Shown here: positions 13,863 through 40,834 of the stretch, piece by piece
Position numbering within the stretch: position 1 is the stretch's first letter
Layout of the letters: each line of letters begins with the position of its first letter
Assembly: GCA_037131105.1 (NCBI GenBank)
Contig: JBAXRQ010000001.1
Coordinates: 560,589-624,588, forward strand
Direction: 5' to 3'
Source of the DNA: a bacterium
GTDB taxonomy: Bacteria; Patescibacteriota; UBA1384; CAILIB01
DNA length: 64,000 bases
Notes under the pieces: generated by a model
What the model saw: the letters and a program-made list of their open reading frames with translations, nothing else
What the model was told of the DNA's origin: nothing
Database searches by the model: none
Position numbers and translations under genes: made by a program

Positions 13863-14144
13863 AGGAAATACTTATCAAGGAGGCAATAGCTCGTAACTAG
13901 TAAGAAGACCGAAGGATCGAACATTCAGAATCGCCACGGGCACTCACAATGAGACCCGTGGCAAACACAATTATAATGTCTTACAATGTATGTTCTAAGT
14001 CCTTATAGGTGGCGATTTGGCAACGCAGATATAATTAGACGATGGAGATTACCTGTATGAATATAAGCTCTGATAAATCAAATTATGAATATTTTCGCGC
14101 TATTTCCTGTTAAACCCGCGTAAATCTTATTCTTTCTATACGCC

Positions 14145-17072
14145 CTATTCCTCCCGTGAGTCAGCCGGATCCGGCCCCCACATAGACATCCCCTCGTTCG
14201 CAGTTTGTTCGGGAAGGGCGAGAGGGTCAGGGGACTCAGCTGCGGCTTTTTGGGCAAGCTCCTTGGCCAGGCGTTTTTGCTCAAGCTTCTCCAAAACCTC
14301 TTTTTCAGGCTCGCCTAAGAACCACTTCAGTCCTCCTTTTTGCGACACCTCCTTGTATACCCACTCATCCAAGACCTTCAAGGGCTTTTCTTTGCGTGGC
14401 GGCTTGGGAACTCCCCCACCCTCCTGCTCCATGGGAACTACGAACGGCTCAGCTACTTCAAGCTGAATAATCTCGTTCGGTTTTTGTTCGTATACTACGG
14501 GAGCCGGTATCGGCTCGGTAACCATAGGTAATGGCACAGGCGTCTCTAGGACGGCTACTGGAGCAGGCGCAAGTGTAGCCACTGGTACAGGCTGAGGAAC
14601 AGGTAGAGGCTGCGGAGCAGGCGCTACCGGCTGCACTGGAGGACTCATCGGAGTCCGGATCGCTAATGACTCCCCGCTCTTCAAGATCTCCTGTGCCACG
14701 TTCTTAGCCTCTTCCACCTCACGCTTCTTCTTGTATCCTGCCGTCTCGTCAATAACCAGCTCCACTTCCTCACGAGGACGAGCGTAACGTTCACGAGAAT
14801 ACTGCATGACCAAATCACGGTTCGACTCCCCTATCTCCTTAGGCATCATGGTCTGGGCCGAGAAGGCAGGAGTGGCGATGCCATCCACCAGCAGCTTCAC
14901 ATAGACATGCCCTCTCTGCAGGTTCACCAGGTCGTTGGCATCAAAGACGGGAGCAAACTCTTTGACCAGCACGTCAGCGTCAGGAGCACCTATCCGAAAG
15001 CTTACCATAGTACCAACATTACCAATGACAGCGTCACGCACAGCCTCTGACATCTGGGCGATGTACTGGTGAGCGATGGTTAGTCCCAGGCCGTACTTAC
15101 GGGCTTCAGAAAGAATGGTAGCAAATGACTCGGTGGCAAAGTTCTGGAACTCATCCACGTACAGGAAGCAGTCAGGCCGCTCAGCCGCAGTTACATTTGC
15201 CCGGCTCATAGCCGCAAGCTGCACCTTGGTGATCATCATGGCACCGAGCAGGGCCATGTTGTCTTCACCTATCTTACCCTTTGACAGGTTTACCACCAGG
15301 ATCTTCTGTTCATCCATGATCTGACGTATATCGATGGACGAGGTAGGCTGCCCAACGATATTTCGCATGGTTGAGGTGGACAGGAACTGGCCGACCTTGT
15401 TCAGGATGGATCCAGGAGCTTCCGCCCGCTGTTGTGGCGACATACTCAGCCACTCATTACTCCAGAAGTCCTTAATAACTACATCCTTGATCTGGGCCAC
15501 TATGGACTCCCGGAAGGCATTGTCAGTGAGCATGCGGGGAATACCCAGCATAGTGGGGTTATCTGAGTCCAAGAGAGCGAGTACTGTATTTCTGAGAATG
15601 TATTCAAGGCGAGGACCCCAGGAATCAGAGTAGAGCTTCTTAAAGATGCCGATGAAGCCCGACGCCACCATCCCCTTGTACTCATCCGCTACCTTCTCAA
15701 GAGGGTTGAAGGAGATCGGGAAGTCACGGTCAGAGGGATCAAAGACCACCACGTCCTTTACCCGGTGAGGCGGCACGCTGTCGATGATCTTGTCGGCCAG
15801 TTCTCCGTGCGGATCCACTACCACAACTCCCCTGCCCTCCATCACATCATCGATGATCATATTCTCAAGCAGGGTGGATTTACCCACACCAGACTTACCA
15901 ATGACGTAGATATGGCGCTTTCGGTCGTCTAGCTTGATACCGAACTCTCGTGAGCTGTTACGGAAGTCGGTCTTACCAAGAACGGTAAGTTCCTTAGGCT
16001 CCACCTCATCCTTGAACGGTAGGTTGAACGGAGCTTCGCCCTTCTTAGAGCCGGCCCAGGAGATAGCCGAGGTCTCTACCGCCTTGGTTGGGAAATGGTA
16101 CAGAGAAGCCAGCTCCTCAATGTTCAGGACGCCGCCCTTCTCCTCAAACTGACGGGTGATGTACTTCGTCCAGGAAGCATGGTCATCGACCAGAGTCGAA
16201 ACCCCCCTGAAGCCGTTGAGGTTGGTGGTGTTGTACTGCTTCAGGGCTGCCAGCATAGCCTGGGAGCGTGACTTGGCGGTCTGGGCCTCGTTGGCGATTA
16301 CAACCAGCCTAAATAAGCTTTCAAAACCTAACTTGGTGATCTTGGTCTCAATCCCCTTCAAAGCGGCCTCTTCAGGCGCAGAAAGCTTCGGGGGCTCCTT
16401 AGGACCGCTTCCGGCCGCGTCCCCTACCCCGGATCCCGGCACCACCATCTCCTGCAGTATGCGGGCACCGAAACGGACCACCTTGGCAGCCGCACCTCCC
16501 CCTCCTCCCATGTCTCCGCTTCGTATGGCCTTTACGTGGGCTACTCCGCGATTCTGCCATTCGTCCCCTACCGGCCGCACTACGATTTGCAGCCAGACCT
16601 GTTCACCCTCATTTAGACCAGCCATTACGGCGGTAATACTTGCCAACGGGTCCACCCCTTCGGAAGCCGTTACTGTCTTGATAGGATACACATCCTCCTT
16701 GGTAAGCTCAATCTTGGTAGTACCCACGTGCTTGCCCTCAAGCTCTACCTGCTTGGTATAGTCAGTCACCTGATGGATCTGCAGGTCGGGATACTGGGCA
16801 TAGAGCTGTCCTTCGATGAAGTCCCTCAAATGTAAAGGCGTGAATACATAAAAGATGATCGAGTCCTTCACCGCCACTATCTCAAAGCTTACGTGCTCCT
16901 GGACAATGGGATCCTCTCGGTAGATGCCGTGCAGCGCTGAGAAGAACTGCTCAGCACTGGCGGCAGTCTTCTCGTTTTCCTTGGCCACTTGGATCGCCAG
17001 CACCACAAAGGTCTGGGACTCCAACCACTCTGCTCGGCGTTTCAGATCATTCGGCTTGGACCATAGGGCCAT
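14145..17072 (-). CDS. FtsK/HerA/VirD4-superfamily ATPase A (975 aa): novel ~390-aa N-terminal domain, Walker A GKSGVGKST, VVVDPHGE, Walker B YVDEFQNF, Pro-rich C-terminal tail
   Basis: Motif order matches type IV coupling-protein/HerA ATPases; paralogous to 17655-20270. Confidence 0.7.
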   Translation of the reverse strand: MALWSKPNDLKRRAEWLESQTFVVLAIQVAKENEKTAASAEQFFSALHGIYREDPIVQEHVSFEIVAVKDSIIFYVFTPLHLRDFIEGQLYAQYPDLQIHQVTDYTKQVELEGKHVGTTKIELTKEDVYPIKTVTASEGVDPLASITAVMAGLNEGEQVWLQIVVRPVGDEWQNRGVAHVKAIRSGDMGGGGGAAAKVVRFGARILQEMVVPGSGVGDAAGSGPKEPPKLSAPEEAALKGIETKITKLGFESLFRLVVIANEAQTAKSRSQAMLAALKQYNTTNLNGFRGVSTLVDDHASWTKYITRQFEEKGGVLNIEELASLYHFPTKAVETSAISWAGSKKGEAPFNLPFKDEVEPKELTVLGKTDFRNSSREFGIKLDDRKRHIYVIGKSGVGKSTLLENMIIDDVMEGRGVVVVDPHGELADKIIDSVPPHRVKDVVVFDPSDRDFPISFNPLEKVADEYKGMVASGFIGIFKKLYSDSWGPRLEYILRNTVLALLDSDNPTMLGIPRMLTDNAFRESIVAQIKDVVIKDFWSNEWLSMSPQQRAEAPGSILNKVGQFLSTSTMRNIVGQPTSSIDIRQIMDEQKILVVNLSKGKIGEDNMALLGAMMITKVQLAAMSRANVTAAERPDCFLYVDEFQNFATESFATILSEARKYGLGLTIAHQYIAQMSEAVRDAVIGNVGTMVSFRIGAPDADVLVKEFAPVFDANDLVNLQRGHVYVKLLVDGIATPAFSAQTMMPKEIGESNRDLVMQYSRERYARPREEVELVIDETAGYKKKREVEEAKNVAQEILKSGESLAIRTPMSPPVQPVAPAPQPLPVPQPVPVATLAPAPVAVLETPVPLPMVTEPIPAPVVYEQKPNEIIQLEVAEPFVVPMEQEGGGVPKPPRKEKPLKVLDEWVYKEVSQKGGLKWFLGEPEKEVLEKLEQKRLAKELAQKAAAESPDPLALPEQTANEGMSMWGPDPADSREE

Positions 17073-17085
17073 GGTTTGGGTTCGA

Positions 17086-17613
17086 TTAAAGCATATTGTC
17101 GATCACCGCCCAACGGGAGGGATGATCGGCGGGAATAAGTAGCATAACCTTGTCTCCCAAATGAAGATTAAAGAGTGACATGTAATAAGTCACTGATGCG
17201 GTCAGGATGCTATAGGTGTTGCCGTCCTCAGCATCCACCACATAGTGGTTACCCTCGGCTCGCAGTACACCTGGAATAGTCGAACGCTCGATGGGGCCAA
17301 GCTGCTTGTAGAAGAACTTGCCATCCGGAGTGATATAGAGCTTAAGCGGATCGCCTTCGACTAGCTTGCTTTTGGAGGCGTAGTTTGAGGAAACCTGGTA
17401 TCCCTTGCCGTTATAGTCAACCATCCTCTCGCCGTCAAAGATACCCTCGATCCCGTCGTCAGTACCAGACTGCTCCTGCAGCGCATAGGTAGGCTGGGCA
17501 GCATAACCAGCCGCTCCTACCCCTAATAGCTGCCGCAGATCACGTATATCCTGCTCGATCCGCTCTAACAGTCGCGCCGCCCGCTCAGCATTTCCATCGG
17601 TATTTGTTTCCAT
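17086..17613 (-). CDS. Hypothetical protein (175 aa) between the two ATPase genes
   Basis: Tightly packed within the operon (13-nt and 41-nt gaps); AAAGG SD. Confidence 0.5.
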   Translation of the reverse strand: METNTDGNAERAARLLERIEQDIRDLRQLLGVGAAGYAAQPTYALQEQSGTDDGIEGIFDGERMVDYNGKGYQVSSNYASKSKLVEGDPLKLYITPDGKFFYKQLGPIERSTIPGVLRAEGNHYVVDAEDGNTYSILTASVTYYMSLFNLHLGDKVMLLIPADHPSRWAVIDNML

Positions 17614-17654
17614 ACCTTTATTTAGTTTTTGATCTTAGGATCACTATATTCTTT

Positions 17655-20270
17655 TCAGACCTGGGGAGCAAGCTGAGGGGCAGGAGCTGGGGCCGGTTCA
17701 GGAGTGGCGGCGGGTACCGGTGCGAGTGGCGTTGAAGCCGTTGGAGCCACAGGAGCGACGGGTGCTGAAAGCCCCTTTGAGCGTAGGCGGATCTCGGACT
17801 CCACCAGCTCGCGGTCACGGCCGTACTTGAGGCGGGACAGCTGCTTGATCGCCTCCCCTACCTGGACGTTCTCGTTAGGGTCCGGCGGATAAGCAGCGGC
17901 ATTGAACGGCTTGGACGGACTTCCGTCGATAAGCATCTTGATGTAGTAGTTGTACTTTTCGGTATTGACCATGTCCTCTATCTCCAGTGGATCAAACTCC
18001 TTCTTAAAGAACTCAGCATCCGAGGCACCGATACGCCAGGTAAGCATAGTACCGACGTTACCGATGACGGCATTTCTCGTATCTTCATCAAGCTGTTCGA
18101 CAAACTGGTTGGTGATATTAAGCGACAGCTGGTACTTACGAGCTTCGGAGAGAATGGTGGCAAAAGTCTTGGACGTGAAGTTCTGGAACTCATCCACATA
18201 GAGATAAAATGGTACTCGTTCTGCCTCGGACTGGTTCTGACGTGAGAATGCGGCGATCTGGATCTTACCTGAGATGATCATACCGAGCAGCTGGGCGTTG
18301 ATATCTCCAAGCAGACCCTTCGGCAAGGTCACCAGGAGGATCTTCTTGCTGTCCATGGCCTCCCGAAAGTTGAAGGCGCTGTTCTGCTGGCCGATGATCG
18401 GCCGCATGATGTCATTGGTGGTGAACTGGGTGAGCTTGGAGGTGATGTACGGCACGATATTAGCAAGAGCCGCCTCTCCCCCAGCCTTTTCAGCCTCGTT
18501 CACCCAGAAGTCGATGACCACCTGGTTGCGGGTCTTGGAGAGTTTCAGCTTGCGGAACTCGGCGTCGGCCAGTACCTTTGGGATCTCCATAAGGGTGCTT
18601 CCCGAGTCAGGGTCGTCCATAACCAGCATCATGGCATTTCGCATGTACTGCTCAAACATAGGTCCTCCGGTGGCCTTCAGGTCATACAGCTTGTCGAAGA
18701 TGGAGATCATCTCGTTGATGACCATGGTCTTCTGCTCTGGATAGCGGGGGTCGAACTCAAGTAGGTTGAAGGCCATGGGGCGGGCGGTATCGGAAGGGTC
18801 AAACAGGATGACGTCCTCGGCCCGCTCCTTGGGAATGTGCTTGAGTATCCACTCGACGGCGTCACCGTTAGGATCCATGTAGCAGACCCCGTGCCCAGCC
18901 CGGATGTCCTGCAGTATCATGTTCTGGAACATAACCGTCTTACCTACACCAGTCTTTCCTATCATGTAGAAGTGGCGAGACCGGTCAGGATAGTTCATAT
19001 AGACCGGGATCTCAGTGCCACGGAAGGCGCTGTAGCCCAGCAATAGACCCGACTTCGGGATGTTGTTAGGAGGTGAAAGCCGGCGGGCACCCAGCCAGTG
19101 GATGTTTGGCGTGTCCAGTACCCGGTTTGGGAAATGGAAGATACTGGCCAGCTCCTCTGTGTTCAAGATAAAGCTAGGCTGGTCCTTGGAGAATAGACGC
19201 AGGATGTAGTCATTACGCAGATGCTGGCTACCGACTGCCGCGGTCTTAAACCCGTTCGACTCAGGCGCCTGATACTGAGAGAAAGCTGAGAGCATGGTCT
19301 GGACGTGGTTCTTAGCCTCAATCTCGGTAGCCGCCCAGGCCACGCAGCGGATCTGTACTTTGAAGCCTACCTTGCTGCCCTTCTCCACCATCAGCTTGGC
19401 TTGCTGCTCCTGCATGGCGGTAAGCCTGACATTAGCCTGGGTGGTGTTACCCGCCTCGTTATGAGTAGGTGCATCAGTCTTCTGGCTGGCCACTGCGGAC
19501 TGACCAACTTCCTTGGCAATATTTCCTACCTTCTGCATATTCGTGGTATGGAAGGATTTGCCCTGCTGCACGTTATGGAGCGCCTCCTCTATCTTATGCT
19601 GCCAGGACTGGTCGGTGGGCTGCACCAGGATCTGAATAGCGCCTCTCCCCTGCCCCATCTTGGATAGTGAGTTGGTCAAGCCATTCAGCGGATCATTCTC
19701 CAGGTTCTTATACGTTCTAATAGGAAATATTTGTTGCTTCATCAGCTGGATACCACCAGAGGCTGTAGCACCACCCTCCTTGATAAAGACGTCGTAATCC
19801 GTAGCCTCCTCGATCTGGGCAGCCGGGTATTGGCCATGGATCTGCCGCTCCACCTGATCCACCGTGTCAGAGGGACAGATAACATAAAAGAAAATCTCAC
19901 CATCATGGGCGGCTAGCTCAAAGGAAAAAGTCGGCTGGCCCTTCAGAAACGTATCAAACCAACTCGAGTCATAGAAATGATGCAGCGATGTGAATACCGC
20001 TTCCATGACGCCCATAATCTCCTTGGGATCACGCCGGTCGTCAGGATTGGCGAGCTGTTTAGGCATTGTCACCCGCAGAGCCCGTGTCTTCAAGGCGCGG
20101 TCTTGGTGCTGCTTGGTACGACGCATATAAATGTAGCGTGCCGCCACAGCCAAGCCGATAAGTAGAACAGCCAGTAGAAAGTCAGTCACTAAAAGTGCCG
20201 CCGTGTTGGTAGTACTGCTACCGCCGTCGGTGTAACTGGTGTCGTAGGTGTAGTCGGTGGTGTCTGCCAT
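17655..20270 (-). CDS. FtsK/HerA/VirD4-superfamily ATPase B (871 aa): N-terminal transmembrane helix, same novel domain, Walker A GKTGVGKT, DPNGD, Walker B YVDEFQNF, Pro/Ala-rich tail
   Basis: Clear paralog of ATPase A (shared blocks EELAS.FHFP, FATILSEARKY, AVIGNVGTM). Confidence 0.7.
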   Translation of the reverse strand: MADTTDYTYDTSYTDGGSSTTNTAALLVTDFLLAVLLIGLAVAARYIYMRRTKQHQDRALKTRALRVTMPKQLANPDDRRDPKEIMGVMEAVFTSLHHFYDSSWFDTFLKGQPTFSFELAAHDGEIFFYVICPSDTVDQVERQIHGQYPAAQIEEATDYDVFIKEGGATASGGIQLMKQQIFPIRTYKNLENDPLNGLTNSLSKMGQGRGAIQILVQPTDQSWQHKIEEALHNVQQGKSFHTTNMQKVGNIAKEVGQSAVASQKTDAPTHNEAGNTTQANVRLTAMQEQQAKLMVEKGSKVGFKVQIRCVAWAATEIEAKNHVQTMLSAFSQYQAPESNGFKTAAVGSQHLRNDYILRLFSKDQPSFILNTEELASIFHFPNRVLDTPNIHWLGARRLSPPNNIPKSGLLLGYSAFRGTEIPVYMNYPDRSRHFYMIGKTGVGKTVMFQNMILQDIRAGHGVCYMDPNGDAVEWILKHIPKERAEDVILFDPSDTARPMAFNLLEFDPRYPEQKTMVINEMISIFDKLYDLKATGGPMFEQYMRNAMMLVMDDPDSGSTLMEIPKVLADAEFRKLKLSKTRNQVVIDFWVNEAEKAGGEAALANIVPYITSKLTQFTTNDIMRPIIGQQNSAFNFREAMDSKKILLVTLPKGLLGDINAQLLGMIISGKIQIAAFSRQNQSEAERVPFYLYVDEFQNFTSKTFATILSEARKYQLSLNITNQFVEQLDEDTRNAVIGNVGTMLTWRIGASDAEFFKKEFDPLEIEDMVNTEKYNYYIKMLIDGSPSKPFNAAAYPPDPNENVQVGEAIKQLSRLKYGRDRELVESEIRLRSKGLSAPVAPVAPTASTPLAPVPAATPEPAPAPAPQLAPQV

Positions 20271-20287
20271 GCCCCTCGGTGGCTTTC

Positions 20288-20665
20288 TTAGGAAGTGGGA
20301 GTATCAGGTCCTGGATTCGCATTCTGGGACGCAAGCAACCGCAGGTTCGCCATGAACTGCGCCCTCTGCGAAAGGGGCATCTTCTCAAAATCCTCCGGAA
20401 GTTCGTGCAGGACAGAAACGACTCCAGGAGAACCTGCCCCGGTGTCACTGCCAGCTACGGCCTCAGGACCAGAATCAGGTGCGAGGGTTACCAGCGCAGT
20501 AGCACCCTCTACCGTACTATTAACCCCATCGACAGGACCCTCAACCTGCGCCGGAATCTGTTCTCCACCTGAAAGCACGGCGGCTTCGGGATTCTGCTGG
20601 TCAATCTGTTGAGTCTGGGCATCACGTAGCGACTCGGGAGTATTTGAACCTGGAAGCTCAGGCAT
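20288..20665 (-). CDS. Hypothetical small acidic protein (125 aa), probably disordered
   Basis: ORF fills the gap between the giant membrane protein and ATPase B; no SD. Confidence 0.35.
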   Translation of the reverse strand: MPELPGSNTPESLRDAQTQQIDQQNPEAAVLSGGEQIPAQVEGPVDGVNSTVEGATALVTLAPDSGPEAVAGSDTGAGSPGVVSVLHELPEDFEKMPLSQRAQFMANLRLLASQNANPGPDTPTS

Positions 20666-20721
20666 GGGATATCCGTTACTAGTTCATATTAAGCATACCA
20701 GCCCGGAGGTAAAGTCGAAAG

Positions 20722-23700
20722 CTATGAAGACCCACCCGGGAGCAGTACATCCTGAAGAGCCTCGTTATTGAGAATATTGGCCATGGCGGCTCCGATCAGG
20801 AGAATGCGGTTTTCCAGTGGGCTTCCGTCTGGGAGTTTTTTGTATCTTTCTCTTGTCGGGGCACTGAGTTGCCTTAGGCGAGTCAGCGCCTCCTTACGGC
20901 CGTCTCCTTCGGTCAGGTTAAGAAGCTCCATGACGCTTTCCCTATCCGCAAAGAAGTCCTCTAGGGCGGCATCATCCGCTGGCATCCCGTCCCCACCATT
21001 AATAAGCTCTTCTAGGTTCTTCTTTATACGATCAGAAAATGCCGGATATTTCTTTTCAGCTTCTGGAGGTGCGGCGCTTCTCAGCCTCAGCTGCAGCCTC
21101 CGCAAGCTATCCATAATAGAAGATGGTCGACTTTCTTCAGTAGAAGGAGTCACAGTCACGGCTGGCGGTTCTTCAGCTGGCGCTGCTTCGACTGTACCCG
21201 GATCAGCAACAGGCGGAGCCTCCAAATCACCCTCGTCCGCTACTGCTTCGATAGGGGCGCCTACGGGCTCCGCAGCAGGAGCCTCAGTCCCTGCACCAGC
21301 ATCCGGATCACCGGGAGCAGCTGGCGGCTCAGTAGTAACGGTCTCTGTACGACCCGCTACGGGATCACTATTATTGGCCTCCTTCTGCATGAACTGACCC
21401 TGTCTCCTTATGGTAAGGTCAAAGGAACGGACCGGCATGCAGCCTTCGGTACCATATGACCGGTCGTTGGCTTCGTTAAAGAGATATCTGCTCCAGTTCT
21501 TCACGAGTGGTACGAAATGCAGGGAAAGGGCCGGACGCCATGGACCCCGGGTATCAGTCGTAGCCGGATCCATAAGGGCCTTATAGGACTGCCTCAGAGC
21601 CTCTTGCCTCTCTAGGCTCGACAGCACCTCGTCATCAACCGCCATGAAGAGCTTCACATTTCCATTGAAGCGATCGTTGAAATCCTCAGGTGCGTTCTCA
21701 CCGAAACGCTTGGCACTACCCTGGTAGTCCCAGATCGCTTCCATTTTACCCCTCACCATGGCAGGTGACTGCTCAGGAGTAAAGGCAAGAAGAAATCTCT
21801 GCTCGTCTTTCGGCCAATCACTCAGGGTTTCAGCTGCTAACCTGAACGCGTCCCTGTGCAGCGGATTCCTAAGCTCGTCCCTGAAGTTCTTGGCCCCCGG
21901 ACCCGCGGCAGACCTGAGGCCATTCTTGTATGCCTCCCAGGAACCAAGCTCGGAGATACTGCCCACCCCATCATCCCCGGCACCGCCATCCTCGATGATC
22001 AGCTCAGTTTTTGTTGAGCGTAGCTTATTTTGAATGTAATACTCTTCAAGCTCGCTGACCTCGTATTTTATGCCGCCGTACCCCACGCTCTCCTCATTCC
22101 CCGCAAAGGGACCTTCGATGTTCAATGGCCGAAGGATTGCGGTGTCGGGGTCAGTCTCATAGTCAGCGTTATTGGGTCCGGACACCAAGTACACGTAATC
22201 AAACATAACAAGGTTTCCCTGTGCCGGCGTATCCATCTGGAAGACCGTTCCAGGCTTCTTCATGAGCTCCTGAAATTCGACCCGACGAGTTTCGCGCTCT
22301 GCAGGTGACAGTCCTGGCTCTGGCCGAACAGGAGCCTCTCTGCCTGCCGGAGGTCGTTCGGTAGGAGGTACTGGTGGTGCAGGTGGCACCGGAGCCTGAG
22401 GTCCCTCAGGCCCTCCGGGACGCGGAGGAGTGGGCGGTACTGGTGGAGCAGGTGGCACAGAAGCCGGCGGTGTCGCCGTTGCTGCCTCGGGCGTAGCAGG
22501 AGGAGCAGGCACAACAGACCCTTCTGGCTGCACTTGGCTGGCATTTCCTACCCCGCCTAGTGAAGTCAGCTCCGACTTGCCGCGAGCAGCGTTCAGGCGG
22601 GTCCTATTGGCCTCACCCATGGTGGCAATACCCTCGGACATGGCAGCGCCCGCCCCGAAGAAAGCCGTAAGCGGAACCGTCTGGGCAAGACTGTCCTTCA
22701 GAAAGGCACCGAAGATCTGCAGGCCACCGACCTCTGAATTATGGAAAAGCTGCAGGCCACGGCCAGTAGTTGCGTCATACATCGCCCCTCCCAGCCGTCT
22801 AGCGGCGTCCACCGCGTCTGTAGTTGCACCATTTCCGGGATATATGGCATGCAAGGTGTTCGGCGACACGTTTATCATGTCCTTCCTCTCAAGGACGAAC
22901 CTGGCCACTTTGTCGTGGGCCCCCTGTATCATCTTGGTCAGATGTCCCCTGGTTGAGTCGTGAGCCACGCTCATGCCGTCCAGCCGCACACCGTCGGCAC
23001 CGTACAGTGAGTTCTGCAGCCCATGCCAGTGATTGATGATGTTGTAGAGGCCACCGGTCAGGCTTCCAGCTGCGCCGCCGATCATTCCCGCCTTATTGAT
23101 CTGCTTGTCAGCCTCTTTCCTGGCCTTCATGAACTCACCGAACTTGGCCAGCTTCTCGTCGGCAGGTGGCTCACCAATATTCTTCAGACGGCTGTCGGTC
23201 GAGTCACGCATGCTGCGGGCAACAAAGCGCAGTAGGTCGGCCTTCTGCTCCTGAGTAGCCTCAGGTGCCGCTTCAGGATTCTCAGTAGTATGAATATAGC
23301 GCTGGGCATACTCAGTTGCCTTGCCGACATTCTCAGTCAGCTCCTGGAAGGCCGACCCTCCCAGAGTAGTGCCGTCTTCTTGCTCCTGGTAGAGCTTCTT
23401 CTCCTTGAAGTGGCGCATGATGCTGCGCCCGGCCATGGCACCGGCAAAGCTCAAGGCCGCCAGAGGTACAGCGGTTCCCATGGAAATGGTAGCCAGTCCT
23501 AACGCTGAAAGCCCCATGCCCACGCCGAGGCCGCCGGCAGTGGTCTTGGCGGTCCGCACTCCATCCTTTATGACCCGCTTCACATAACTTGGCTGTTTGA
23601 GGTTGACGTTTATTTCGGACTGAGGATCAATACCTCCCTGCGAGGAGAAGCTTTCGATATCCACACCGAACTGGTCGCAGGCCTCCTGCAGATTTTTGAA

Positions 23701-24240
23701 GCCTAGGCGGTGCACATACATCTCGCCGGCGATAGAGTCCCAGCCGTACTGCACCAGATCCCTAGCAATGAACAGCAGATCCTCCTCGTCAAGCTCCTCT
23801 CGGCGCTTCAGCTTTTCCTTGAAGCGAGTAAGAATAAGTCGACGGACAAGCTGGCGATGGGCGTCGGCGTCCAGCATTTCAGGCTCAGCCGGTACCTCGA
23901 TCGCCGGGGCAGGAGCTTCTTCAGCCGGAGGAGTTTCAACCAGAGGGGCAATGGCAGGCTCGGCCACAGGGTCAGCGGCAGGGACCTCAGGTTCAGGATC
24001 GGAAGCAGGGACTGGTTCCGGAGCGATAGGCTGCTCTTCACCGTTCAAGTAGAGCTCCTTCAATCGGGCCAGGTCATAGCGCTTATACTCACGCTCACGC
24101 TGGGCCAGCAGCCGTTTCTGCTGCTTGGGCTTATGGACGTTCTCCTCCATAAACTCATTCTTGTACTCGTTAACCCTGTCGGCGAGAGTGCCGGCATTGG
24201 TACGTGCGTTCTGCCATCCTTCCCCCCATGCGACAGCCAT
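20722..24240 (-). CDS. Giant membrane protein (1172 aa) with Gly/Ala-rich transmembrane hairpins, Pro-rich linkers and a C-terminal globular region; possible VirB6/TrbL-like channel or scaffold
   Basis: Hydrophobic G/A-rich segments (GGLGVGMGLSALGLATISMGTAVPLAALSFAGAMAG; GMIGGAAGSLTGGLY; VPLTAFFGAGAAMSEG); start 2 nt from the stop of the upstream ORF. Confidence 0.6.
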   Translation of the reverse strand: MAVAWGEGWQNARTNAGTLADRVNEYKNEFMEENVHKPKQQKRLLAQREREYKRYDLARLKELYLNGEEQPIAPEPVPASDPEPEVPAADPVAEPAIAPLVETPPAEEAPAPAIEVPAEPEMLDADAHRQLVRRLILTRFKEKLKRREELDEEDLLFIARDLVQYGWDSIAGEMYVHRLGFKNLQEACDQFGVDIESFSSQGGIDPQSEINVNLKQPSYVKRVIKDGVRTAKTTAGGLGVGMGLSALGLATISMGTAVPLAALSFAGAMAGRSIMRHFKEKKLYQEQEDGTTLGGSAFQELTENVGKATEYAQRYIHTTENPEAAPEATQEQKADLLRFVARSMRDSTDSRLKNIGEPPADEKLAKFGEFMKARKEADKQINKAGMIGGAAGSLTGGLYNIINHWHGLQNSLYGADGVRLDGMSVAHDSTRGHLTKMIQGAHDKVARFVLERKDMINVSPNTLHAIYPGNGATTDAVDAARRLGGAMYDATTGRGLQLFHNSEVGGLQIFGAFLKDSLAQTVPLTAFFGAGAAMSEGIATMGEANRTRLNAARGKSELTSLGGVGNASQVQPEGSVVPAPPATPEAATATPPASVPPAPPVPPTPPRPGGPEGPQAPVPPAPPVPPTERPPAGREAPVRPEPGLSPAERETRRVEFQELMKKPGTVFQMDTPAQGNLVMFDYVYLVSGPNNADYETDPDTAILRPLNIEGPFAGNEESVGYGGIKYEVSELEEYYIQNKLRSTKTELIIEDGGAGDDGVGSISELGSWEAYKNGLRSAAGPGAKNFRDELRNPLHRDAFRLAAETLSDWPKDEQRFLLAFTPEQSPAMVRGKMEAIWDYQGSAKRFGENAPEDFNDRFNGNVKLFMAVDDEVLSSLERQEALRQSYKALMDPATTDTRGPWRPALSLHFVPLVKNWSRYLFNEANDRSYGTEGCMPVRSFDLTIRRQGQFMQKEANNSDPVAGRTETVTTEPPAAPGDPDAGAGTEAPAAEPVGAPIEAVADEGDLEAPPVADPGTVEAAPAEEPPAVTVTPSTEESRPSSIMDSLRRLQLRLRSAAPPEAEKKYPAFSDRIKKNLEELINGGDGMPADDAALEDFFADRESVMELLNLTEGDGRKEALTRLRQLSAPTRERYKKLPDGSPLENRILLIGAAMANILNNEALQDVLLPGGSS

Positions 24241-24242
24241 AC

Positions 24243-24590
24243 TCAGGCCTCCTGTGGGAGGGCAGTTACGGCGATATCCGGGTCAATAGCGGCCTTGAAG
24301 GTAGCGGCCAGCTCAAATCGGTAGCGCATAGCCTCCTCAGTGATAAGGGCGGCCAGGTCTATCCCCTGCGCCTCGATGTAAGGAATCATGTCGTCGGCGG
24401 AAAGCTCGGAGAAATGATGGCGCTGGTCTTCGGGAAGCATCTCGTAGACGGTGAGATATACCCGTCCCTGGACAGTCTGATTCATGGTCTTGAGCAGCTC
24501 TTCCTTCTCATCCTCAGGCAAGCCCTGCAGACCAAGGAGGGTGAAGAAATCCTCTTCGAGAATATCCTGGAGAGTCAGAGAAAACGACAT
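24243..24590 (-). CDS. Hypothetical small acidic protein (116 aa; start set at MSFSL)
   Basis: ORF coupled to the downstream giant gene; no recognisable motif. Confidence 0.45.
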   Translation of the reverse strand: MSFSLTLQDILEEDFFTLLGLQGLPEDEKEELLKTMNQTVQGRVYLTVYEMLPEDQRHHFSELSADDMIPYIEAQGIDLAALITEEAMRYRFELAATFKAAIDPDIAVTALPQEA

Positions 24591-24710
24591 GGGCAGGCTA
24601 TTAGTTTTCCTTATGATACGCCCGGGAGGGAATGAAGCGCAAGTACACAAAACATCCGGCCCTCTTGTGAGGTACCGGATGCAATGGATGTTCTTGTGCA
24701 GTCACGGCGA

Positions 24711-25766
24711 CTATGCTGTCGCTGGAGCTGCTGTGCCCGGAGGCGGCGTAGGAGCCGGCGTCGGGGCGGGAGTTGTGGTGGCCGGTGTGGCCGGGGTGCC
24801 AGTAGCTGGCGTCGCAGTCGCACCGGTTGTAGCCGGTGGTGCCGTGACGGTCGCTGTGGCCGGCTTCTTGAAAAGCCAGGCCAACGCAACCAGTATCAGG
24901 ATGCCGAGCCCTACCAGTCCCCAGTTTATCTGGATGACGCTGTTGACGCCGCTCCGGATGTCGCTGCCCTGGGCCTTGATCTCGGTTGCCTGCTTCTGGA
25001 TGTCGGTCGCCTGATCCCCGATAGTGGCCAGTGAGGTCAGGAAGTCTTTGTCGTCAACCTCCTGCTTGCTGGCTACTCCGTTGATCGTGGTGACAACCGT
25101 TGCCAGTGTGGCAGTGTTGGCGCTCGTTGAGGCCTGAACCGCCTTCACGCCAGTGGCAATCGCGTCGATCTTCTTACCCAGGCCGTCGAACTTGGCGTCG
25201 GTCCGCTTTTCGGAAGCGGCGACCAGGCCTTTTACGGCGACTAGTGTCACGCCAGACTTGCTCACCCTTCCACCAGTTGCCTTGCGGCTTGCGGCGTGGT
25301 GACGGACAGATCCACCGCTGCGGTGGCGGCGAACACCCCCACCGTGATGGCGGTGATGACGGACCGGAGCAGCAGGGGCAGCCGCGGGTGCGGCGGCCGA
25401 ATGCGTGTCCGGCACGACCTCGGGGGCCGGTTTGGTCTCCGGGTCAGGAGCGGGATCTGGCTCGGTGGCAATGCCACTGTCGCCGTCTTCCACGTCATTG
25501 CCTTCGTCCTCTCCAACCCCGTATTCGGGAGCAGGGGCGGCTTCGGGCAATCCTGCCTGCGGGGCAGGCGGGGCCAGTGCCAGCCGTTCTCCACTCTGGC
25601 CTTCAGGGGCCTTCGGGGCGGAAACGGTTGTTTCAAAGCCCGGGTTCGGCGCCGGGGCGCCTATGCTGGCCTGACTTCTTCCAGTCGAGCTGGTGGACGT
25701 CATATGGACCGCCACACCGAGTACCATGCCGATCGCCAATGCGACGATCACAATTCGATTTTTCAT
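24711..25766 (-). CDS. Membrane protein (351 aa): signal/transmembrane N-terminus, acidic Pro/Ala region, His/Arg-rich patch, coiled segment, C-terminal transmembrane helix and Pro/Thr-rich tail
   Basis: Start MKNRIVIVALAIGMVLG is preceded by AGGAGG; it is the first gene of the operon, behind a consensus promoter. Confidence 0.55.
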   Translation of the reverse strand: MKNRIVIVALAIGMVLGVAVHMTSTSSTGRSQASIGAPAPNPGFETTVSAPKAPEGQSGERLALAPPAPQAGLPEAAPAPEYGVGEDEGNDVEDGDSGIATEPDPAPDPETKPAPEVVPDTHSAAAPAAAPAAPVRHHRHHGGGVRRHRSGGSVRHHAASRKATGGRVSKSGVTLVAVKGLVAASEKRTDAKFDGLGKKIDAIATGVKAVQASTSANTATLATVVTTINGVASKQEVDDKDFLTSLATIGDQATDIQKQATEIKAQGSDIRSGVNSVIQINWGLVGLGILILVALAWLFKKPATATVTAPPATTGATATPATGTPATPATTTPAPTPAPTPPPGTAAPATA

Positions 25767-25821
25767 TTCTACCTCCTGTCGTGATTTGGCTCCCCCTTGT
25801 CGGGTAGCGGACAGTGGCCGC

Positions 25822-25850
25822 ATTAAACCACAAAAACAGCCTTTTGTCAA
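25822..25850 (-). promoter_or_regulatory. Sigma70 promoter TTGACA-17-TTTAAT driving the 24711-14145 operon
   Basis: Minus-strand TTGACA (25845-25850) and TTTAAT (25822-25827) with 17 nt spacing; about 55-nt 5'UTR with AGGAGG. Confidence 0.6.
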
Positions 25851-25876
25851 GGCCCTTAGGCTCTCACAGCCTATTA

Positions 25877-28324: not shown

Positions 28325-29458
28325 CTAACCACTCTTCTTCCGATACGTAGCTAGACGTACCAGCCAGTAACCCACAAACAACACCAAAGCCGCTGCCAAC
28401 AGTGCCAGCAGAACCGGCCAGCTCAGGCCGACAAGCACTGCCAGGGCGGCCCACCATCTCCTTCGGTTCGGAGTCGCACTCCCCTCAACTGCAACTGCCG
28501 TCATCCCAATGAACAGAATAACCGACAGGCCAAGGAGGTAGTTTGACAAAATGTTCAGCCAAACCCGGATCACCACGTTCGGTACGTTGGTCAGGGTCAC
28601 CGATGGCTGGCCCGTATAACCGACATCGCTCCATTCGCGGGACCTTCCCTGTGAGACCATGCCGATCTTCTTCCAAACCAGATCGTTGGTCTGCTGCCAG
28701 GTCCAGTACGAGACCGCGTTATACCCGCGCGTGCGCTTGCCGAACTCCAGCACTTCGCTGGCCTCAGACAAACCATACGTCTGACCAAGGGGCACTATCG
28801 GCTTCTTGATGCCGTTCTCATGCTCCCAGGCCTTCCACTCTCGGTAGGTCCAGTTGACGGTCTCTTTGACGGACCTCCCCATCGTCCTCCAATACATCTG
28901 GGGCTCAATGAAGTCAGTACCGCCTACCAGGACCTGGTAGGGAAGCGCTCGATGCTTGGAAGGAATGGCATAGGGTGCGAATCCGAGCAGCTTCTGGGGA
29001 CACTTAGTCGTCCTGTAGTCAGAAACTTCACTGACAAGCTGCTCAGTCTCCCCCCACTTTGGTTTGGACTCCATCGGCGTCTCCGTGTTGTACACGTAGC
29101 CATCGACATAGTCGCGGGACAGCCAGTCGCAGATCAGGTGGGCCTCCTCATGCGGATGGTTTGCATGGTTGAAGCCCCAGACGAAAACCTTTATCCCTGC
29201 GGACTGCATGGCCCTGGCAATCTCGGGCACCCGGTCAGCCTCCACGTAAAGCTGGATGCCGTCGTGCACCTTCAGGTAGACATGACCGATGCCGGCCGCC
29301 TTGGCCTGGTTGACCATCTCTGCGGGCGTACCGCACTTGCTGGGCTGCCCGATCCAGATACCGACCCCGATCTGCCTGAGCTGGTCGGATACCGGCGCTG
29401 CCTGGACCATCGAAGTCCAAGCACATACAAACAGTGCTACTATCAAAGAACGTTTCAC
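28325..29458 (-). CDS. Secreted/membrane-anchored putative glycoside hydrolase (TIM-barrel, GH25-lysozyme-like pattern) with a C-terminal transmembrane anchor; start moved to the GTG giving signal peptide MKRSLIVALFVCAWTSMVQAAP
   Basis: SD GAGGGAGCAAGA-GTG and its own consensus promoter; GH25-like spacing of GI..G / AKAAGI..YLKVHDG / AGIKVFVWGFNH blocks; C-terminal hydrophobic stretch plus RKKSG. Confidence 0.5.
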   Translation of the reverse strand: MKRSLIVALFVCAWTSMVQAAPVSDQLRQIGVGIWIGQPSKCGTPAEMVNQAKAAGIGHVYLKVHDGIQLYVEADRVPEIARAMQSAGIKVFVWGFNHANHPHEEAHLICDWLSRDYVDGYVYNTETPMESKPKWGETEQLVSEVSDYRTTKCPQKLLGFAPYAIPSKHRALPYQVLVGGTDFIEPQMYWRTMGRSVKETVNWTYREWKAWEHENGIKKPIVPLGQTYGLSEASEVLEFGKRTRGYNAVSYWTWQQTNDLVWKKIGMVSQGRSREWSDVGYTGQPSVTLTNVPNVVIRVWLNILSNYLLGLSVILFIGMTAVAVEGSATPNRRRWWAALAVLVGLSWPVLLALLAAALVLFVGYWLVRLATYRKKSG

Positions 29459-29489
29459 TCTTGCTCCCTCTAAAATGAAGTGACGCCTT

Positions 29490-29518
29490 ACTATAGGCAG
29501 TTTATCGTCTTCTGTCAA
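29490..29518 (-). promoter_or_regulatory. Sigma70 promoter TTGACA-17-TATAGT for the glycoside-hydrolase-like gene
   Basis: Consensus -35 and near-consensus -10 with 17 nt spacing, immediately downstream of the rplA terminator. Confidence 0.65.
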
Positions 29519-32786: not shown

Positions 32787-34673
32787 TTACCGGATGTCCA
32801 GGTTCTCCAGGCTCTTCTTCAGGGCCTTCTTCAGCTTCAGGTAGCGAGCAAGTCCTGCACCTAGTCCAGAAGTGGTTCCTGCTAGTAGCAGGCCAGCTTC
32901 AGGGCCGGTCTTAGGCAACTGAGGCGGAACCGTGACAACTACGGGAGACGGACTTGGGGTCGGGCTATGCGTAGGAGTCGGGGTAGCGGTAGGAACTGGG
33001 GTCGGAGTAGGAGTCGGACTTGGGGTAGGCGTAGGTGTTGGCGTAGGCTTCGGGGTAGCTGTTGGCGTGGGGGTAGGGGTAGCCGTAGGCTTGGGAGTAG
33101 GAGTCGGGGTGGGCTTTGGCGTAGGTGTAGGCGTGGCCGTAGGGGTAGGCTTCGGAGTCGGGGTTGGGGTCGGCTTCGGGGTAGGAGTCGGAGTAGCCGT
33201 AGGTGTTGGGGCAGGCGTAGGAGTAGGAATGACACAGGCAGGCAGGATAGCCGTAGCAGTGTCGCTCTTCTCTCCGGTTCCGTTGGCCTTGATGAAGGCG
33301 GTGTTCACCGCAGTGGTCTGAGCCACGAGACAACGAACCTGAACCTTCAGGGTAATCGTCTTACCATGACCGGGGTCAAAGGTGGTCAGGATAATACCTC
33401 CCTTGAAGAAGGCGTCCTGTACCGGCTGAGACTGAACCGCGTTGTCGATGGTCAGACTGTTAGGCACATAGGTGGCACCGGTAGGCAGCACGTCACGCAG
33501 GGTAGGATTCACAGCGGTAGTGTTGCCAGTGTTACCGACCAAGATACGGTAGGTCAGGGTCTGGTTAGGGTTAATCAGTCCGATAGAGTCTACGTAGGCA
33601 CCGGTAGCGGGGTTCTGAACGTCCTTTACGACGGTCAGACCGCGGGTGCAGGAAATCAAGGTGGTAGCATCGTCAGAGGCCTTTACAGCGCCCTGGTATA
33701 CGATCTGAGCCTTGTCGACAACGGTTACGTCGGCACCACAGTTCGAAGGCGCAATGGCCTCAAACTGGATACGCTGGTATCCGCCGGTATGAGGCTCCAG
33801 GCTGGAGAACACATAGCCGCCGTTCACGATGGCATTACCCGAGATAGGGGTACCGTTCGTGTTGTTCTGGTTGGTCAAGAGAGCGTTGCCAGCATAGGTG
33901 AACCCAGCAGGCAGCACGTTCTTCAACGAGACATTGTTGGCAGTAGTATTACCGGTGTTCAGGATGGTCATACGATAGGCCACCTTGTCACCAGGAGCGA
34001 TGATAGCAGTAGCGGCATCGTACCAGATATCATAGCCGAGACTCATGTCACGGACCTCATTCTTCACGCTGAATGAGGTTACCGGAGTACCGTACCGGGT
34101 AACGGTATAGGATACCGGATTGGTGACAGCGCTTACCCCGTCAAACGAAGAGGTAGCGGTATTGGTATAGGTAGTCTGGCCAACCGAGAACTGGTCGTCA
34201 GAAGCAAGGCGAGCCTTGAACTGAAGATACAGGGCAGCGTTTGGCTGAGGAGCCATGTCAACGAAGGCCCAGCCAAGGTCATGACCGTTGTTCTTAATGC
34301 TCATGTAGCTATCCGAAAGCGGATAGTCATGGTCCTTGTTATCGCTGCCCTTTACCCGTACGAACGAGCTGTTAGGGGTATAGGTCAGACGAGAGTCAAG
34401 GTGCTCTACGATCTTCGGGTGGGCGCCGTTAGCGTCACCGGTGTTCTCAAGGAGTACGCGGAACGCCAGCGAGTCACCAGGAGTAGCCTGGGCACTGGAA
34501 GCATACTCGGACTGCCCGCCGGACAGCTGTACGGCAAGCCTGGTGTTGATCTGGGGACCAGAGGTCGCAATGACCGACTGCATACCCATGAAGCCAAGGG
34601 CCAGGGCGGAAGCAGCCACCACAAAGCGGGTGCCGAATCGTCCCATGGATGTAAGGAGTGAACTTTGTGTCAT
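32787..34673 (-). CDS. Cell-wall-anchored surface protein: signal peptide, DUF11-type repeat domains, Pro/Thr-rich stalk, LPKTG sortase motif plus hydrophobic segment plus basic tail
   Basis: C-terminal [31 protein letters not shown] is a canonical LPXTG sorting signal; ~100-aa (PTPT/PKPT)n linker. Confidence 0.7.
32932..33235 (-). repeat. Degenerate tandem DNA repeats (GGNGTNGGN-type units) encoding the Pro/Thr-rich stalk of the LPXTG protein
   Basis: Visible periodic gtaggngtnggngt units on the plus strand; explains the Gly/Val shadow ORFs on the opposite strand. Confidence 0.6.
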
Positions 34674-34769
34674 AGAGACTCTGGTTAGATAGTGGTGAGT
34701 ATAGGTCCGCCAGGGATATTTCGGTGTAAGTTGGCTTACATAACCGATAATCCGCAGCAGTAATAGTGT

Positions 34770-34798
34770 GTTTTACCATACTAGAGACTTTTTGTCAA
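34770..34798 (-). promoter_or_regulatory. Putative promoter TTGACA-17-TAAAAC for the LPXTG surface protein gene
   Basis: Consensus -35, weak -10, about 95 nt upstream of the ATG. Confidence 0.35.
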
Positions 34799-34822
34799 TA
34801 GGTAAATAGGCTCTGGGATACG

Positions 34823-34856
34823 AAAAACGACCCCGAGCATTGCTGCTGCGGGGTCG
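34823..34856 (-). terminator. Intrinsic terminator after the 34894-35970 gene (cgaccccg ... cggggtcg 8-9 bp stem, 13-nt loop, U5)
   Basis: Hairpin plus T-run on the minus strand, 40 nt after the stop. Confidence 0.65.
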
Positions 34857-34893
34857 TTTCGTTAGACAGTCGGCGCGGTGGTGGTCGCGCTGA

Positions 34894-35970: not shown

Positions 35971-35992
35971 CTTTTTCTCCTCATTCCTCTTC

Positions 35993-40162: not shown

Positions 40163-40801
40163 TTATAAAGTTGGCCCCATGCTTTTTCGTCCCTCCATCG
40201 CCCTCTGAAGAGTAGTAGGATCTGCGTACTCCAAATCACTTCCCATAGGCAGCCCGCGGGCGATGCGGGTTACTACTACTGTTCCATCTTCGACGAGCGA
40301 CTGCAAGAGCTGACCGATATACATTGATGTGGCCTCCCCTTCCAAAGAAGGATTCGTGGCAAGGATTACCTCGAGTTTGTGTCCCTCGGATACAGCTAAG
40401 CGTATACGCGTCTCAAGAAGCCCCACCCTTAGCTGGTCAGGACCGATGCCGTCGATAGGTGAAAGCGCTCCACCGAGGACATGGTAGAGGCCATGGAAAC
40501 TACCGGTTCTCTCAAGAGCGATTACATCCAAGGGACCCTCCACTACACAAATGAGGTCAGGGTTGCGCTGACCGTCCTGGCAGACGCTACAGAGATCATG
40601 CTCGGAGATATTTCCACACTGCTTGCAGTCCTGCAGACCGTGCCGAATCCCGTCTAGGGCATCAACGAAGCGTGCCACATCATAGTCCGACTTCTGCAGA
40701 AGATGAAAGGTGAGGCGTGAGGCCATCTTTGATCCTATCCCTGGCAACCGGCCGAAGGTATCGATCAGATTCTGGACTGAAGTCGGGAGCTTTGCGGACA
40801 T
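40163..40801 (-). CDS. recR: Recombination protein RecR
   Basis: HhH motif (LPGIGSKMASRL), C4 zinc finger (CKQCGNISEHDLCSVC), Toprim domain. Confidence 0.9.
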   Translation of the reverse strand: MSAKLPTSVQNLIDTFGRLPGIGSKMASRLTFHLLQKSDYDVARFVDALDGIRHGLQDCKQCGNISEHDLCSVCQDGQRNPDLICVVEGPLDVIALERTGSFHGLYHVLGGALSPIDGIGPDQLRVGLLETRIRLAVSEGHKLEVILATNPSLEGEATSMYIGQLLQSLVEDGTVVVTRIARGLPMGSDLEYADPTTLQRAMEGRKSMGPTL

Positions 40802-40834
40802 GAAAATAGTATACTAGAGCCCATCTCGTAATTA

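Follow-up and report, generated by a model that had tools for sequence, protein, structure and literature searches.

Paralogous coupling-protein-type ATPases and an OB-like partner in a conserved chromosomal locus of Patescibacteria

Background

A large part of bacterial diversity belongs to the Patescibacteria, which live on other cells. To our knowledge, only type IV pili and a VirB4-type type IV secretion system (T4SS) without a coupling protein have so far been tied genetically to this epibiotic lifestyle. Here we describe a locus of seven genes (g1, g2, g3, g4, ATPase B, g6 and ATPase A, in this order) on a 64-kb stretch of a Patescibacteria contig (JBAXRQ010000001.1, positions 560,589 to 624,588; this whole stretch is called the window), encoding two ATPases of the type IV coupling protein (T4CP) kind and a small partner between them.

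The essential T4SS of Southlakia epibionticum is encoded by SEML1_0006-0019, a VirB4-type cluster with a VirB2-like pilin array and “no recognizable coupling and relaxase proteins” (Wang et al., PMC10633639). In a survey of 3,035 Patescibacteria genomes VirB4 was detected in 2,417; T4CP homologues numbered 5,713, were spread over 2,918 genomes (~2 per genome) and lay near virB4 in only 148 cases. Exaptation of T4CPs for other functions was suggested as a possibility, citing the non-essentiality of “the” t4cp (Quinonero-Coronel et al., PMC12102498). Relatives of such ATPases are also known from phages: SPO1 gp27.4 and 0305phi8-36 orf201 were named the “coupling ATPase” of a phage “DNA translocation operon”, and their non-membrane N-domain was already remarked (Pathria et al., PMC3357382).

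Transposon insertion sequencing (Tn-seq) data of S. epibionticum include two T4CP-like ATPases, both flagged as core and Patescibacteria-enriched and both unmentioned in the main text (PMC10633639). In the tables of that paper SEML1_0293 (921 aa) lies beside the sigma-like 0294 and topA 0296, which is the synteny of ATPase A (see below), and is scored NE/NE/NE, yet its reads drop from 5817 to 2940 and then 1372. The second, SEML1_0142 (1019 aa, P-loop domain at 381-800), is scored ES/ES/ES, with 114 input insertions falling to 11, 11 and 9, and SEML1_0141 (139 aa), upstream of it, GD/ES/ES. The statement on a non-essential t4cp in PMC12102498 covers only SEML1_0293; SEML1_0142 and 0141 were scored essential in Supplementary Table S1 of PMC10633639.

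Two paralogous ATPases of the T4CP branch

Within the FtsK/HerA superfamily, both ATPases of the locus fall in the T4CP (VirD4/TrwB/TraD) branch, with motors of the VirD4/TrwB/HerA/VirB4 clade. Each contained a T4CP-type P-loop domain with Walker A and Walker B, the motifs being GKSGVGKS and FLYVDEFQNF in ATPase A (Walker A at residue 392, Walker B at 636) and GKTGVGKT and YLYVDEFQNF in ATPase B (438 and 689). An earlier reading of the window from its letters alone (the sequence-only reading) had noted GxGKS/T and DEFQNF motifs and placed the proteins with FtsK/HerA/VirD4, which agrees with these results. In the profile search that it had proposed, Pfam TrwB_AAD_bind and TraG-D_C scored above the gathering cut-off in both proteins and T4SS-DNA_transf and DUF87 also in A; AAA_10 and the VirB4 signatures, likewise named there, fell below cut-off. 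NCBIfam equivalog thresholds were reached by neither ATPase (~50 bits vs the 250-650 required). The proposed structure prediction and fold search also pointed to this branch: Foldseek matched TrwB and full-length TrwK/VirB4 with E 1e-12 to 6e-15, and the nearest characterised folds were TrwB, HerA and FtsK, all DNA translocases.

ATPases A and B were paralogues, with 36% identity over 762 aa including the N-terminal 330 residues, and the A clade stood apart from the B clade in a neighbour-joining tree. In public precomputed annotation the N-domain of both was DUF8128 (PF26449), as it was in all listed homologues. The AlphaFold model of A (pLDDT, the predicted local distance difference test, 81) had a confident alpha/beta N-domain and a RecA-like motor with a helical insertion; the TrwB_AAD_bind profile covered residues 382-691, and a helical block at 463-573, which may correspond to the all-alpha domain of T4CPs, lay between core strands of the model. 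On the C-terminal side followed a ~100-residue disordered Pro-rich linker and then a small conserved hairpin-helix domain. This mini-domain (residues 900-945; window 14238-14375, minus strand) comprised two beta-hairpins and a helix, and its residues G913, W917 and E921 did not vary among 56 sequences; it may serve for docking.

More than 3860 homologues were found in Patescibacteria, and Walker A and B were retained in essentially all of 240 family members inspected. ATPase B had 1276 homologues in a search, and among the best 120 of these an N-terminal transmembrane (TM) helix was present in 106. Among ATPase A orthologues a TM helix was present in 61 of 105 and absent from the window copy and its closest relatives; ATPase A of this clade is soluble and presumably reaches the membrane via a partner.

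The partner encoded between the ATPases

Searches with g6 gave 527 homologues and no Pfam domain. The protein has a near-invariant motif, NYASKSKLVEGDPLKL. Among 12 distinct loci carrying B, 10 had the g6 gene after it. Its predicted domains are given in Table 1.

Conservation of the locus in Patescibacteria

Synteny was compared in 80 loci from GTDB species representatives, together with contigs found by protein identity. The conserved unit was B, g6 and A, often with a sigma70_r4/HARE-HTH gene between g6 and A; no homologue of the latter was found anywhere in the window. On the far side of the locus SecF, SecD, RluD-like, RmuC and AddA-like genes recurred. The order tgt/L10-L12, locus, SecF/SecD/RluD/RmuC/AddA-like was kept in distant lineages as far as Berkelbacteria, where one locus (L084) read L10, L12, tgt, a 136-aa gene, B, g6 and A. 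In Saccharimonadia and Nomurabacteria the order was dprA, topA and a sigma-like gene, followed by a lone TM-anchored A. Of the 62 loci with enough upstream sequence, 43 had a sigma-like gene ahead of ATPase A, 36 had topA and 22 had dprA.

Because the flanking housekeeping synteny is conserved to Berkelbacteria, the locus is core genome, vertically inherited and not mobile cargo. No pilin, relaxase or integrase was detected in profile scans of the locus, as the sequence-only reading had stated, and tRNA and repeat scans found neither a tRNA nor flanking repeats. That reading had also named the observations that would speak against it, namely homology of all components to a conjugative element with a relaxase/oriT nearby, or absence of the locus from related genomes with a mobile-element signature, and had proposed a synteny check; the locus was kept with its housekeeping flanks, and neither observation was made: no relaxase was nearby and the synteny was conserved.

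The seven-slot layout recurred in L085, in which B, g6 and A were 65%, 63% and 69% identical to those of the window and the g2 homologue 35%. After tgt, this locus had a two-TM protein, then the g2 homologue with a giant of 957 aa, then a protein of 123 aa ahead of B, g6 and A; no similarity to g1, g3 or g4 was detectable there. In L086 and L007 a g2 homologue and a giant were on the opposite strand. The slot upstream of the ATPases varied from a single protein of 136 aa (L084) to proteins of 638 and 411 aa (L086) or of 601, 100, 304, 122, 957 and 123 aa (L085). Taken together, the comparisons show a cytoplasmic motor that evolves slowly and, next to it, an envelope or cargo module that changes fast and can be rearranged. 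The sequence-only reading had taken all seven genes as one envelope-spanning machine, which the comparisons do not support, only B, g6 and A being conserved as a unit.

Relatives on phages and plasmids

The PHROG family phrog_5156 matched both ATPases end to end (E 4e-88 for A and 2e-90 for B). By tblastn, full-length relatives with 20-23% identity were found in 49 phage records, mostly of Bacillus and Geobacillus, including phage G gp156, SPO1 gp27.4, TP-84 gp48 and D6E ORF23. SPO1 gp27.4 had an Alp7A-type actin gene on one side and a Replic_Relax protein on the other, an actin gene was present in D6E too, and phage G gp156 adjoined and followed a VirB4-like ATPase. TP-84 gp48 was matched by BLASTP (E 2e-21) and retained the LNTEELAxIxHxP motif. 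Just upstream of it in TP-84 (L087, 5603-5983), gp47 (126 aa) gave a weak TrbC/VirB2 pilin match (E 6e-5, below cut-off).

Plasmids gave 309 matches, from Streptomyces, haloarchaea, Bacillus, Staphylococcus, Clostridium and Sulfolobus. The B. subtilis MH-1 plasmid NZ_CP032854 (24.7 kb) encoded, in this order, ParM, a DUF87 ATPase in the very place expected of a coupling protein, a replication-relaxation protein and TcpE, and then a VirB4-like ATPase with conjugal transfer proteins. The DUF8128 profile aligned with the N-terminus of the B. subtilis plasmid ATPase (hhalign, 98.7% probability, E 3e-16), and had no match among PDB sequences, in Pfam or in the VirB4-like phage G gp155. These phage and plasmid contexts and the DUF8128 profile alignment indicate that DUF8128 plus motor is the monoderm, soluble-N-domain flavour of coupling protein. 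On the Natrinema thermotolerans plasmid NZ_CP101874 (L092, 3448-11018) two T4CP-like ATPases of 1107 and 1021 aa had a 399-aa gene between them, a haloarchaeal arrangement that recalls B-g6-A.

Operon layout and promoter

Open reading frame (ORF) calling on the 64-kb window confirmed seven consecutive co-oriented ORFs on the minus strand at 14145-25766 (Table 1), and their boundaries from g1 to ATPase A were matched by independent calls on public contigs encoding identical proteins. The sequence-only reading had described seven co-directional genes behind one consensus promoter, and both the ORFs and a promoter unique of its type in the window were found. The candidate lies just past the tgt stop codon, with TG at -15/-14; TTGACA-N17-TWTAAT had this single match in the window (0.01 expected by chance). 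A generic promoter scan passed over the site, because the -10 hexamer has T at position 2. A Shine-Dalgarno sequence, AGGAGG, was 6 nt ahead of the g1 ATG (25766).

Table 1. Positions of the features of the locus in the window
Feature	Position	Strand	Description
Promoter, sigma-70-type candidate	25822..25850	-	TTGACA-17-TTTAAT, TGn extended -10; sequence reading
g1, 351 aa	24711..25766	-	TM 5-23 and 277-295; Ala/Pro-rich region, His/Arg patch, C-terminal Pro/Thr tail
g2, 115 aa	24243..24590	-	acidic, 23 D+E vs 7 K+R; DUF5663-like
g3, 1172 aa	20722..24240	-	fast-evolving, mostly hydrophilic, Pro-rich linkers
g4, 125 aa	20288..20665	-	acidic, low complexity, no TM helix; 17 nt upstream of ATPase B
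ATPase B, 871 aa	17655..20270	-	N-terminal TM helix 24-42; DUF8128 ~85-385; T4CP-type P-loop motor ~420-835; Pro-rich tail
g6, 175 aa	17086..17613	-	N-terminal coiled-coil helix 5-30, disordered linker, two small beta-barrel (OB/S1-like) domains
ATPase A, 975 aa	14145..17072	-	DUF8128 ~20-330; T4CP-type motor with helical insertion ~360-800; no TM helix
Convergent spacer, operon end	13863..14144	.	AT-rich, 282 nt; sequence; no tRNA, flanking repeats or Rfam match

From g1 to ATPase A the intergenic gaps were 120, 2, 56, 17, 41 and 13 nt. The genes had been called tightly coupled, which fails at g1-g2 because of the 120-nt gap and its weak hairpin. Another weak, terminator-like hairpin followed tgt (25838-25854, minus strand) and overlapped the -35 box of the operon promoter; given this overlap, tgt read-through and initiation at the operon promoter may be coupled. 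The locus does lie beside tgt, as had been claimed, and the “AT-rich scar” claimed at its other end was an ordinary convergent spacer. A plus-strand promoter-like site in this spacer (ATGAGA-17-TATAAT, 13949-13977) had no ORF behind it, and a small RNA may be encoded there.

Upstream genes g1 to g4

The sequence-only reading had held that only the ATPase cores match a known family. In profile scans none of g1, g2, g3, g4 and g6 matched a characterised family, and to this extent it stands; the N-domains of the ATPases are DUF8128, and g2 matched DUF5663 weakly (E=0.0016), a match also flagged in precomputed hits. With g1, g3 and g4, tblastn and iterated profile searches over 84 related loci returned their own genome only.

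By hydropathy g1 was a bitopic or two-TM envelope protein, fast-evolving, and the two TM helices, His/Arg patch and Pro/Thr tail described for it earlier were all found. No family was matched by g1 in Pfam, NCBIfam, PADLOC or PHROG. Its positional analogue in L085 (304 aa) had the same two-TM layout.

Two acidic proteins of 116 and 125 aa had been described; both are acidic, and the g2 ORF is one residue shorter than stated. The g2 stop codon was 2 nt ahead of the g3 start, which suggests translational coupling of the pair. Homologues of g2 were found in L085, L086, L005 and L007, each followed, on either strand, by a protein of 700-1050 aa. An acidic protein coupled to a giant recalls chaperone-effector pairs by analogy.

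The description of g3 as a Gly-rich multi-TM giant was not borne out: it contained 8.7% Gly and one or two marginal Gly/Ala-rich hydrophobic segments (residues 234-275). Against 1.84 billion representatives HMMER gave only three weak matches (E 8e-7 to 9e-4, residues ~125-486), and Pfam, NCBIfam, PADLOC and PHROG were all negative. Its positional analogues (957, 1052 and 874 aa) had similar Gly-rich hydrophobic patches; no significant BLASTP match linked them to g3, and Pfam on them was negative. In the g4 position L085 had a 123-aa gene without detectable similarity to g4.

In L024, L053 and L074 (Peregrinibacteria, Peribacteria-type) two conserved proteins of ~140-170 aa preceded the ATPase, an arrangement resembling SEML1_0140-0141-0142. 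These small proteins formed families of their own, with no sequence relation to g4 or g6.

The rest of the window

The rest of the window was housekeeping (SecDF, gmk, tgt, L10/L12, L1, release factor, CysRS, recR, topA, dprA, Mfd, FtsW and IleRS). An Rfam scan of the whole window found nothing, and there was no GC anomaly at the locus. The genes dprA (42874-43743), topA (40835-42892) and recR (40163-40801), all on the minus strand, lay within window 40163-43743, ~15 kb away from the locus, whereas in most other Patescibacteria dprA and topA are found, with the sigma70_r4/HARE-HTH gene, immediately ahead of ATPase A. A Pfam-negative 397-aa ORF (28325-29518, minus strand) was situated between the ribosomal L1 and L10 genes, and in the L1 ORF (309 aa) the L1 profile match was confined to the C-terminal third. 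At 32787-37042 (minus strand) a 628-aa DUF11-repeat protein lay in a stretch of strong positive GC skew (+0.24) and was followed by two Pfam-negative ORFs of 380 and 349 aa. In S. epibionticum a DUF11 protein, SEML1_0144, adjoins the essential T4CP-like SEML1_0142.

Interpretation and alternatives

We conclude that the locus is a chromosomally fixed Patescibacterial descendant of a monoderm conjugative T4CP module, duplicated and stripped of its relaxase and channel genes. We put at about even (a probability of roughly 0.5) that its product is a membrane-docked, substrate-translocating motor, likely for DNA, feeding a channel encoded elsewhere, most plausibly the VirB4-type T4SS. B, probably with A, would form one or more hexameric rings on the cytoplasmic face of the membrane, with B as anchor and A recruited, and g6 would be an adaptor or collar holding a linear polymer, which ATP hydrolysis would thread towards a channel outside the conserved core. 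The polymer would most likely be DNA, to judge from the relatives of the family, their settings on phages and plasmids, the proximity of dprA and topA and the OB-like fold of g6; an unfolded protein would be a less likely substrate. The most plausible channel would be the separately encoded VirB4-type T4SS, because that cluster lacks a coupling protein and is essential, as is SEML1_0142. The products of g2 and g4 are possible chaperones or adaptors, and those of g3 and g1 possible lineage-specific cargo or envelope partners.

The sequence-only reading had proposed the locus itself as the T4SS-like system of episymbiosis. The known one is the separate VirB4/pilin cluster SEML1_0006-0019, and profile scans of the locus and of the rest of the window found no VirB4, VirB2, VirB3, VirB6 or VirB8 signature, so the locus is not the episymbiosis T4SS; it may still supply the coupling module that the VirB4-type T4SS lacks.

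Several points weigh against a motor that feeds this T4SS. Its substrate, channel and partner are putative, and no relaxase or oriT-like element was nearby. From annotation, length, domain layout and the “Patescibacteria-enriched” flag we infer that SEML1_0142 is DUF8128-type and B-like. The presence of T4CP homologues in 2,918 genomes vs VirB4 in 2,417 hints at a T4SS-independent role, incompleteness of metagenome-assembled genomes being an alternative. The adjacency to dprA-topA may be historical synteny, not functional linkage. Finally, g1-g4 are not conserved with the core and are on the other strand in some lineages, so their link to the motor is weak.

Possible, though not probable, is a stand-alone DNA pump without a T4SS, in which membrane-tethered ATPases and the OB-like g6 would act as a transformation motor replacing ComFA or as a segregation/repair translocase. 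The position of ATPase A in dprA-topA-sigma/HARE-HTH neighbourhoods in most lineages, the conserved RmuC and AddA-like helicase-nuclease downstream, the DNA-translocase folds and a distribution of T4CP homologues wider than that of VirB4 are consistent with it. The term “ComFA” was absent from the S. epibionticum supplementary tables, and SEML1_0293 is dispensable there, as is comEC. However, the DNA-gene neighbourhood is perhaps inherited gene order only, and S. epibionticum has a canonical FtsK that is essential (PMC10633639 tables). Its comEC mutants show no fitness cost, yet reads of SEML1_0293 fall fourfold and SEML1_0142 is essential, so competence alone cannot explain both paralogues.

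We consider it unlikely that the DUF8128 pair and g6 are the motor of an unrecognised phylum-wide translocation system, distinct from Sec, type IV pili and the VirB4 T4SS, which would move nucleic acid or giant fast-evolving effectors of the g2/g3 type between episymbiont and host, with one paralogue indispensable for epibiotic growth.

Also unlikely is a chance juxtaposition, in which the conserved ATPase trio would be co-transcribed with unrelated fast-evolving surface-protein genes lying between tgt and B. It accords with the different contents of the upstream slot in L084, L085 and L086 and with the wide g1-g2 gap and its weak hairpin, but not with the g2 homologue and giant found beside the ATPase module in several lineages and in both orientations, or with the mere 17 nt between g4 and ATPase B.

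Improbable too is a self-contained seven-gene secretion machine spanning the envelope, with g1 and g3 as conduit, the ATPases as power and g2 and g4 as chaperones or substrates. Co-orientation behind one strong promoter, the seven-slot layout of L085 with its 65% identical ATPase B, a g2-giant pair that adjoins the ATPases in no fewer than four distinct lineages, the TM helices of g1 and the Gly-zipper-like hydrophobic segments of g3 all speak for it. However, Berkelbacteria and Saccharimonadia have no g1-g3 beside the ATPases, the g2-giant pair is on the opposite strand in L086 and L007, and convincing TM helices are missing from g3. Homologues of g1, g3 and g4 were undetectable even where the ATPases were 65-69% identical, and these three would therefore suit cargo or surface proteins and not a conserved channel.

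Mobile-element cargo or an anti-phage defence of the HerA/DndH/MADS type, to which the PADLOC matches (mad8 with E 7e-21, HerA and DndH weakly, all confined to the P-loop core) and the relatives on phages and plasmids might point, is very improbable and was rejected on context and distribution, given the missing integrase, relaxase, tRNA, repeats and GC shift, the housekeeping synteny conserved across classes and a family near-universal in the phylum.

The ATPase family itself is already known, having been counted as T4CP homologues in a 2025 paper, and its N-domain was named DUF8128 by Pfam. In the literature searched, neither the B-g6-A operon nor its OB-like partner appears to have been reported, nor does a relationship between DUF8128 and the coupling ATPases of plasmids and phages, the contrast of a conserved motor with a hyper-variable upstream module or the split essentiality in existing Tn-seq data. 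The roughly two coupling-protein-like ATPases kept in almost every Patescibacteria genome can now be seen as paralogues of ancient origin that have an OB-like partner of their own and descend from the soluble-N-domain coupling ATPases of Firmicutes plasmids and phages. A vague question thus becomes testable: whether they are the missing coupling proteins of the essential T4SS and, if so, what they deliver, or whether they are an independent DNA or protein pump.

Comparison with known systems

A VirB4 signature was not reached by either ATPase (AAA_10 15 and 13 bits vs 27.5; NF045971 and NF045975 far below cut-off), and a possible relationship to the VirB4 N-terminal domain was seen only as a Foldseek alignment of low TM-score. 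For FtsK/SpoIIIE, Pfam FtsK_SpoIIIE stayed below cut-off (E 0.04-0.08), no FtsK gamma domain was detected, and replacement of FtsK was ruled out, the canonical essential FtsK of S. epibionticum being separate. No HAS-barrel turned up in the scans, none of which was aimed at it. The multi-ATPase EssC/EccC and small WXG100 proteins of type VII secretion were not found at the locus. With HerA-type translocases and defence ATPases (Sir2-HerA, DptH/DndH, MADS) the similarity was confined to the P-loop core; a nuclease, Sir2 or methylase partner was missing, and g1-g4 and g6 were PADLOC-negative.

For g6 alone the proteasomal ATPases PAN and Mpa/ARC offer an analogy, with N-terminal rings of coiled coil and OB domains; Mpa has a double OB domain. 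Unlike in these, g6 is a separate polypeptide and its partner motor is of RecA/ASCE type, not AAA+. No more than a generic barrel fold can be read from the scores, and a ring for g6 would be an analogy.

The essential, MPF-FATA-derived Patescibacterial T4SS is found in the same phylum as the locus of the window, has the same presumed monoderm-conjugation ancestry and likewise lacks a relaxase. It is, however, a separate locus of different proteins, and VirB4, VirB2-like pilins, PrgI/VirB3, VirB6 and VirB8 are absent from the locus of the window.

The classical T4CPs (TrwB of R388, VirD4, TraD, Cag-beta and DotL) have a two-helix N-terminal membrane domain, in contrast to the one TM helix of B or none of A, followed by the ~330-aa DUF8128; a TM domain is also missing from the monoderm and phage relatives (PMC3357382). 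Nor was a relaxase or VirB4 associated with the ATPases, profile scans of the locus, of its flanks and of the large ORFs in the window having found no match.

In the Firmicutes plasmids and Bacillus phages the ATPase genes adjoin relaxase (Replic_Relax), actin-like partition or VirB3/VirB4-like genes on mobile DNA, whereas those of the window are duplicated, chromosomal, without a relaxase and accompanied by g6, at an identity of only 20-27%. The proteins themselves are built alike in both settings, a soluble alpha/beta N-domain homologous to DUF8128 being followed by a T4CP-type motor.

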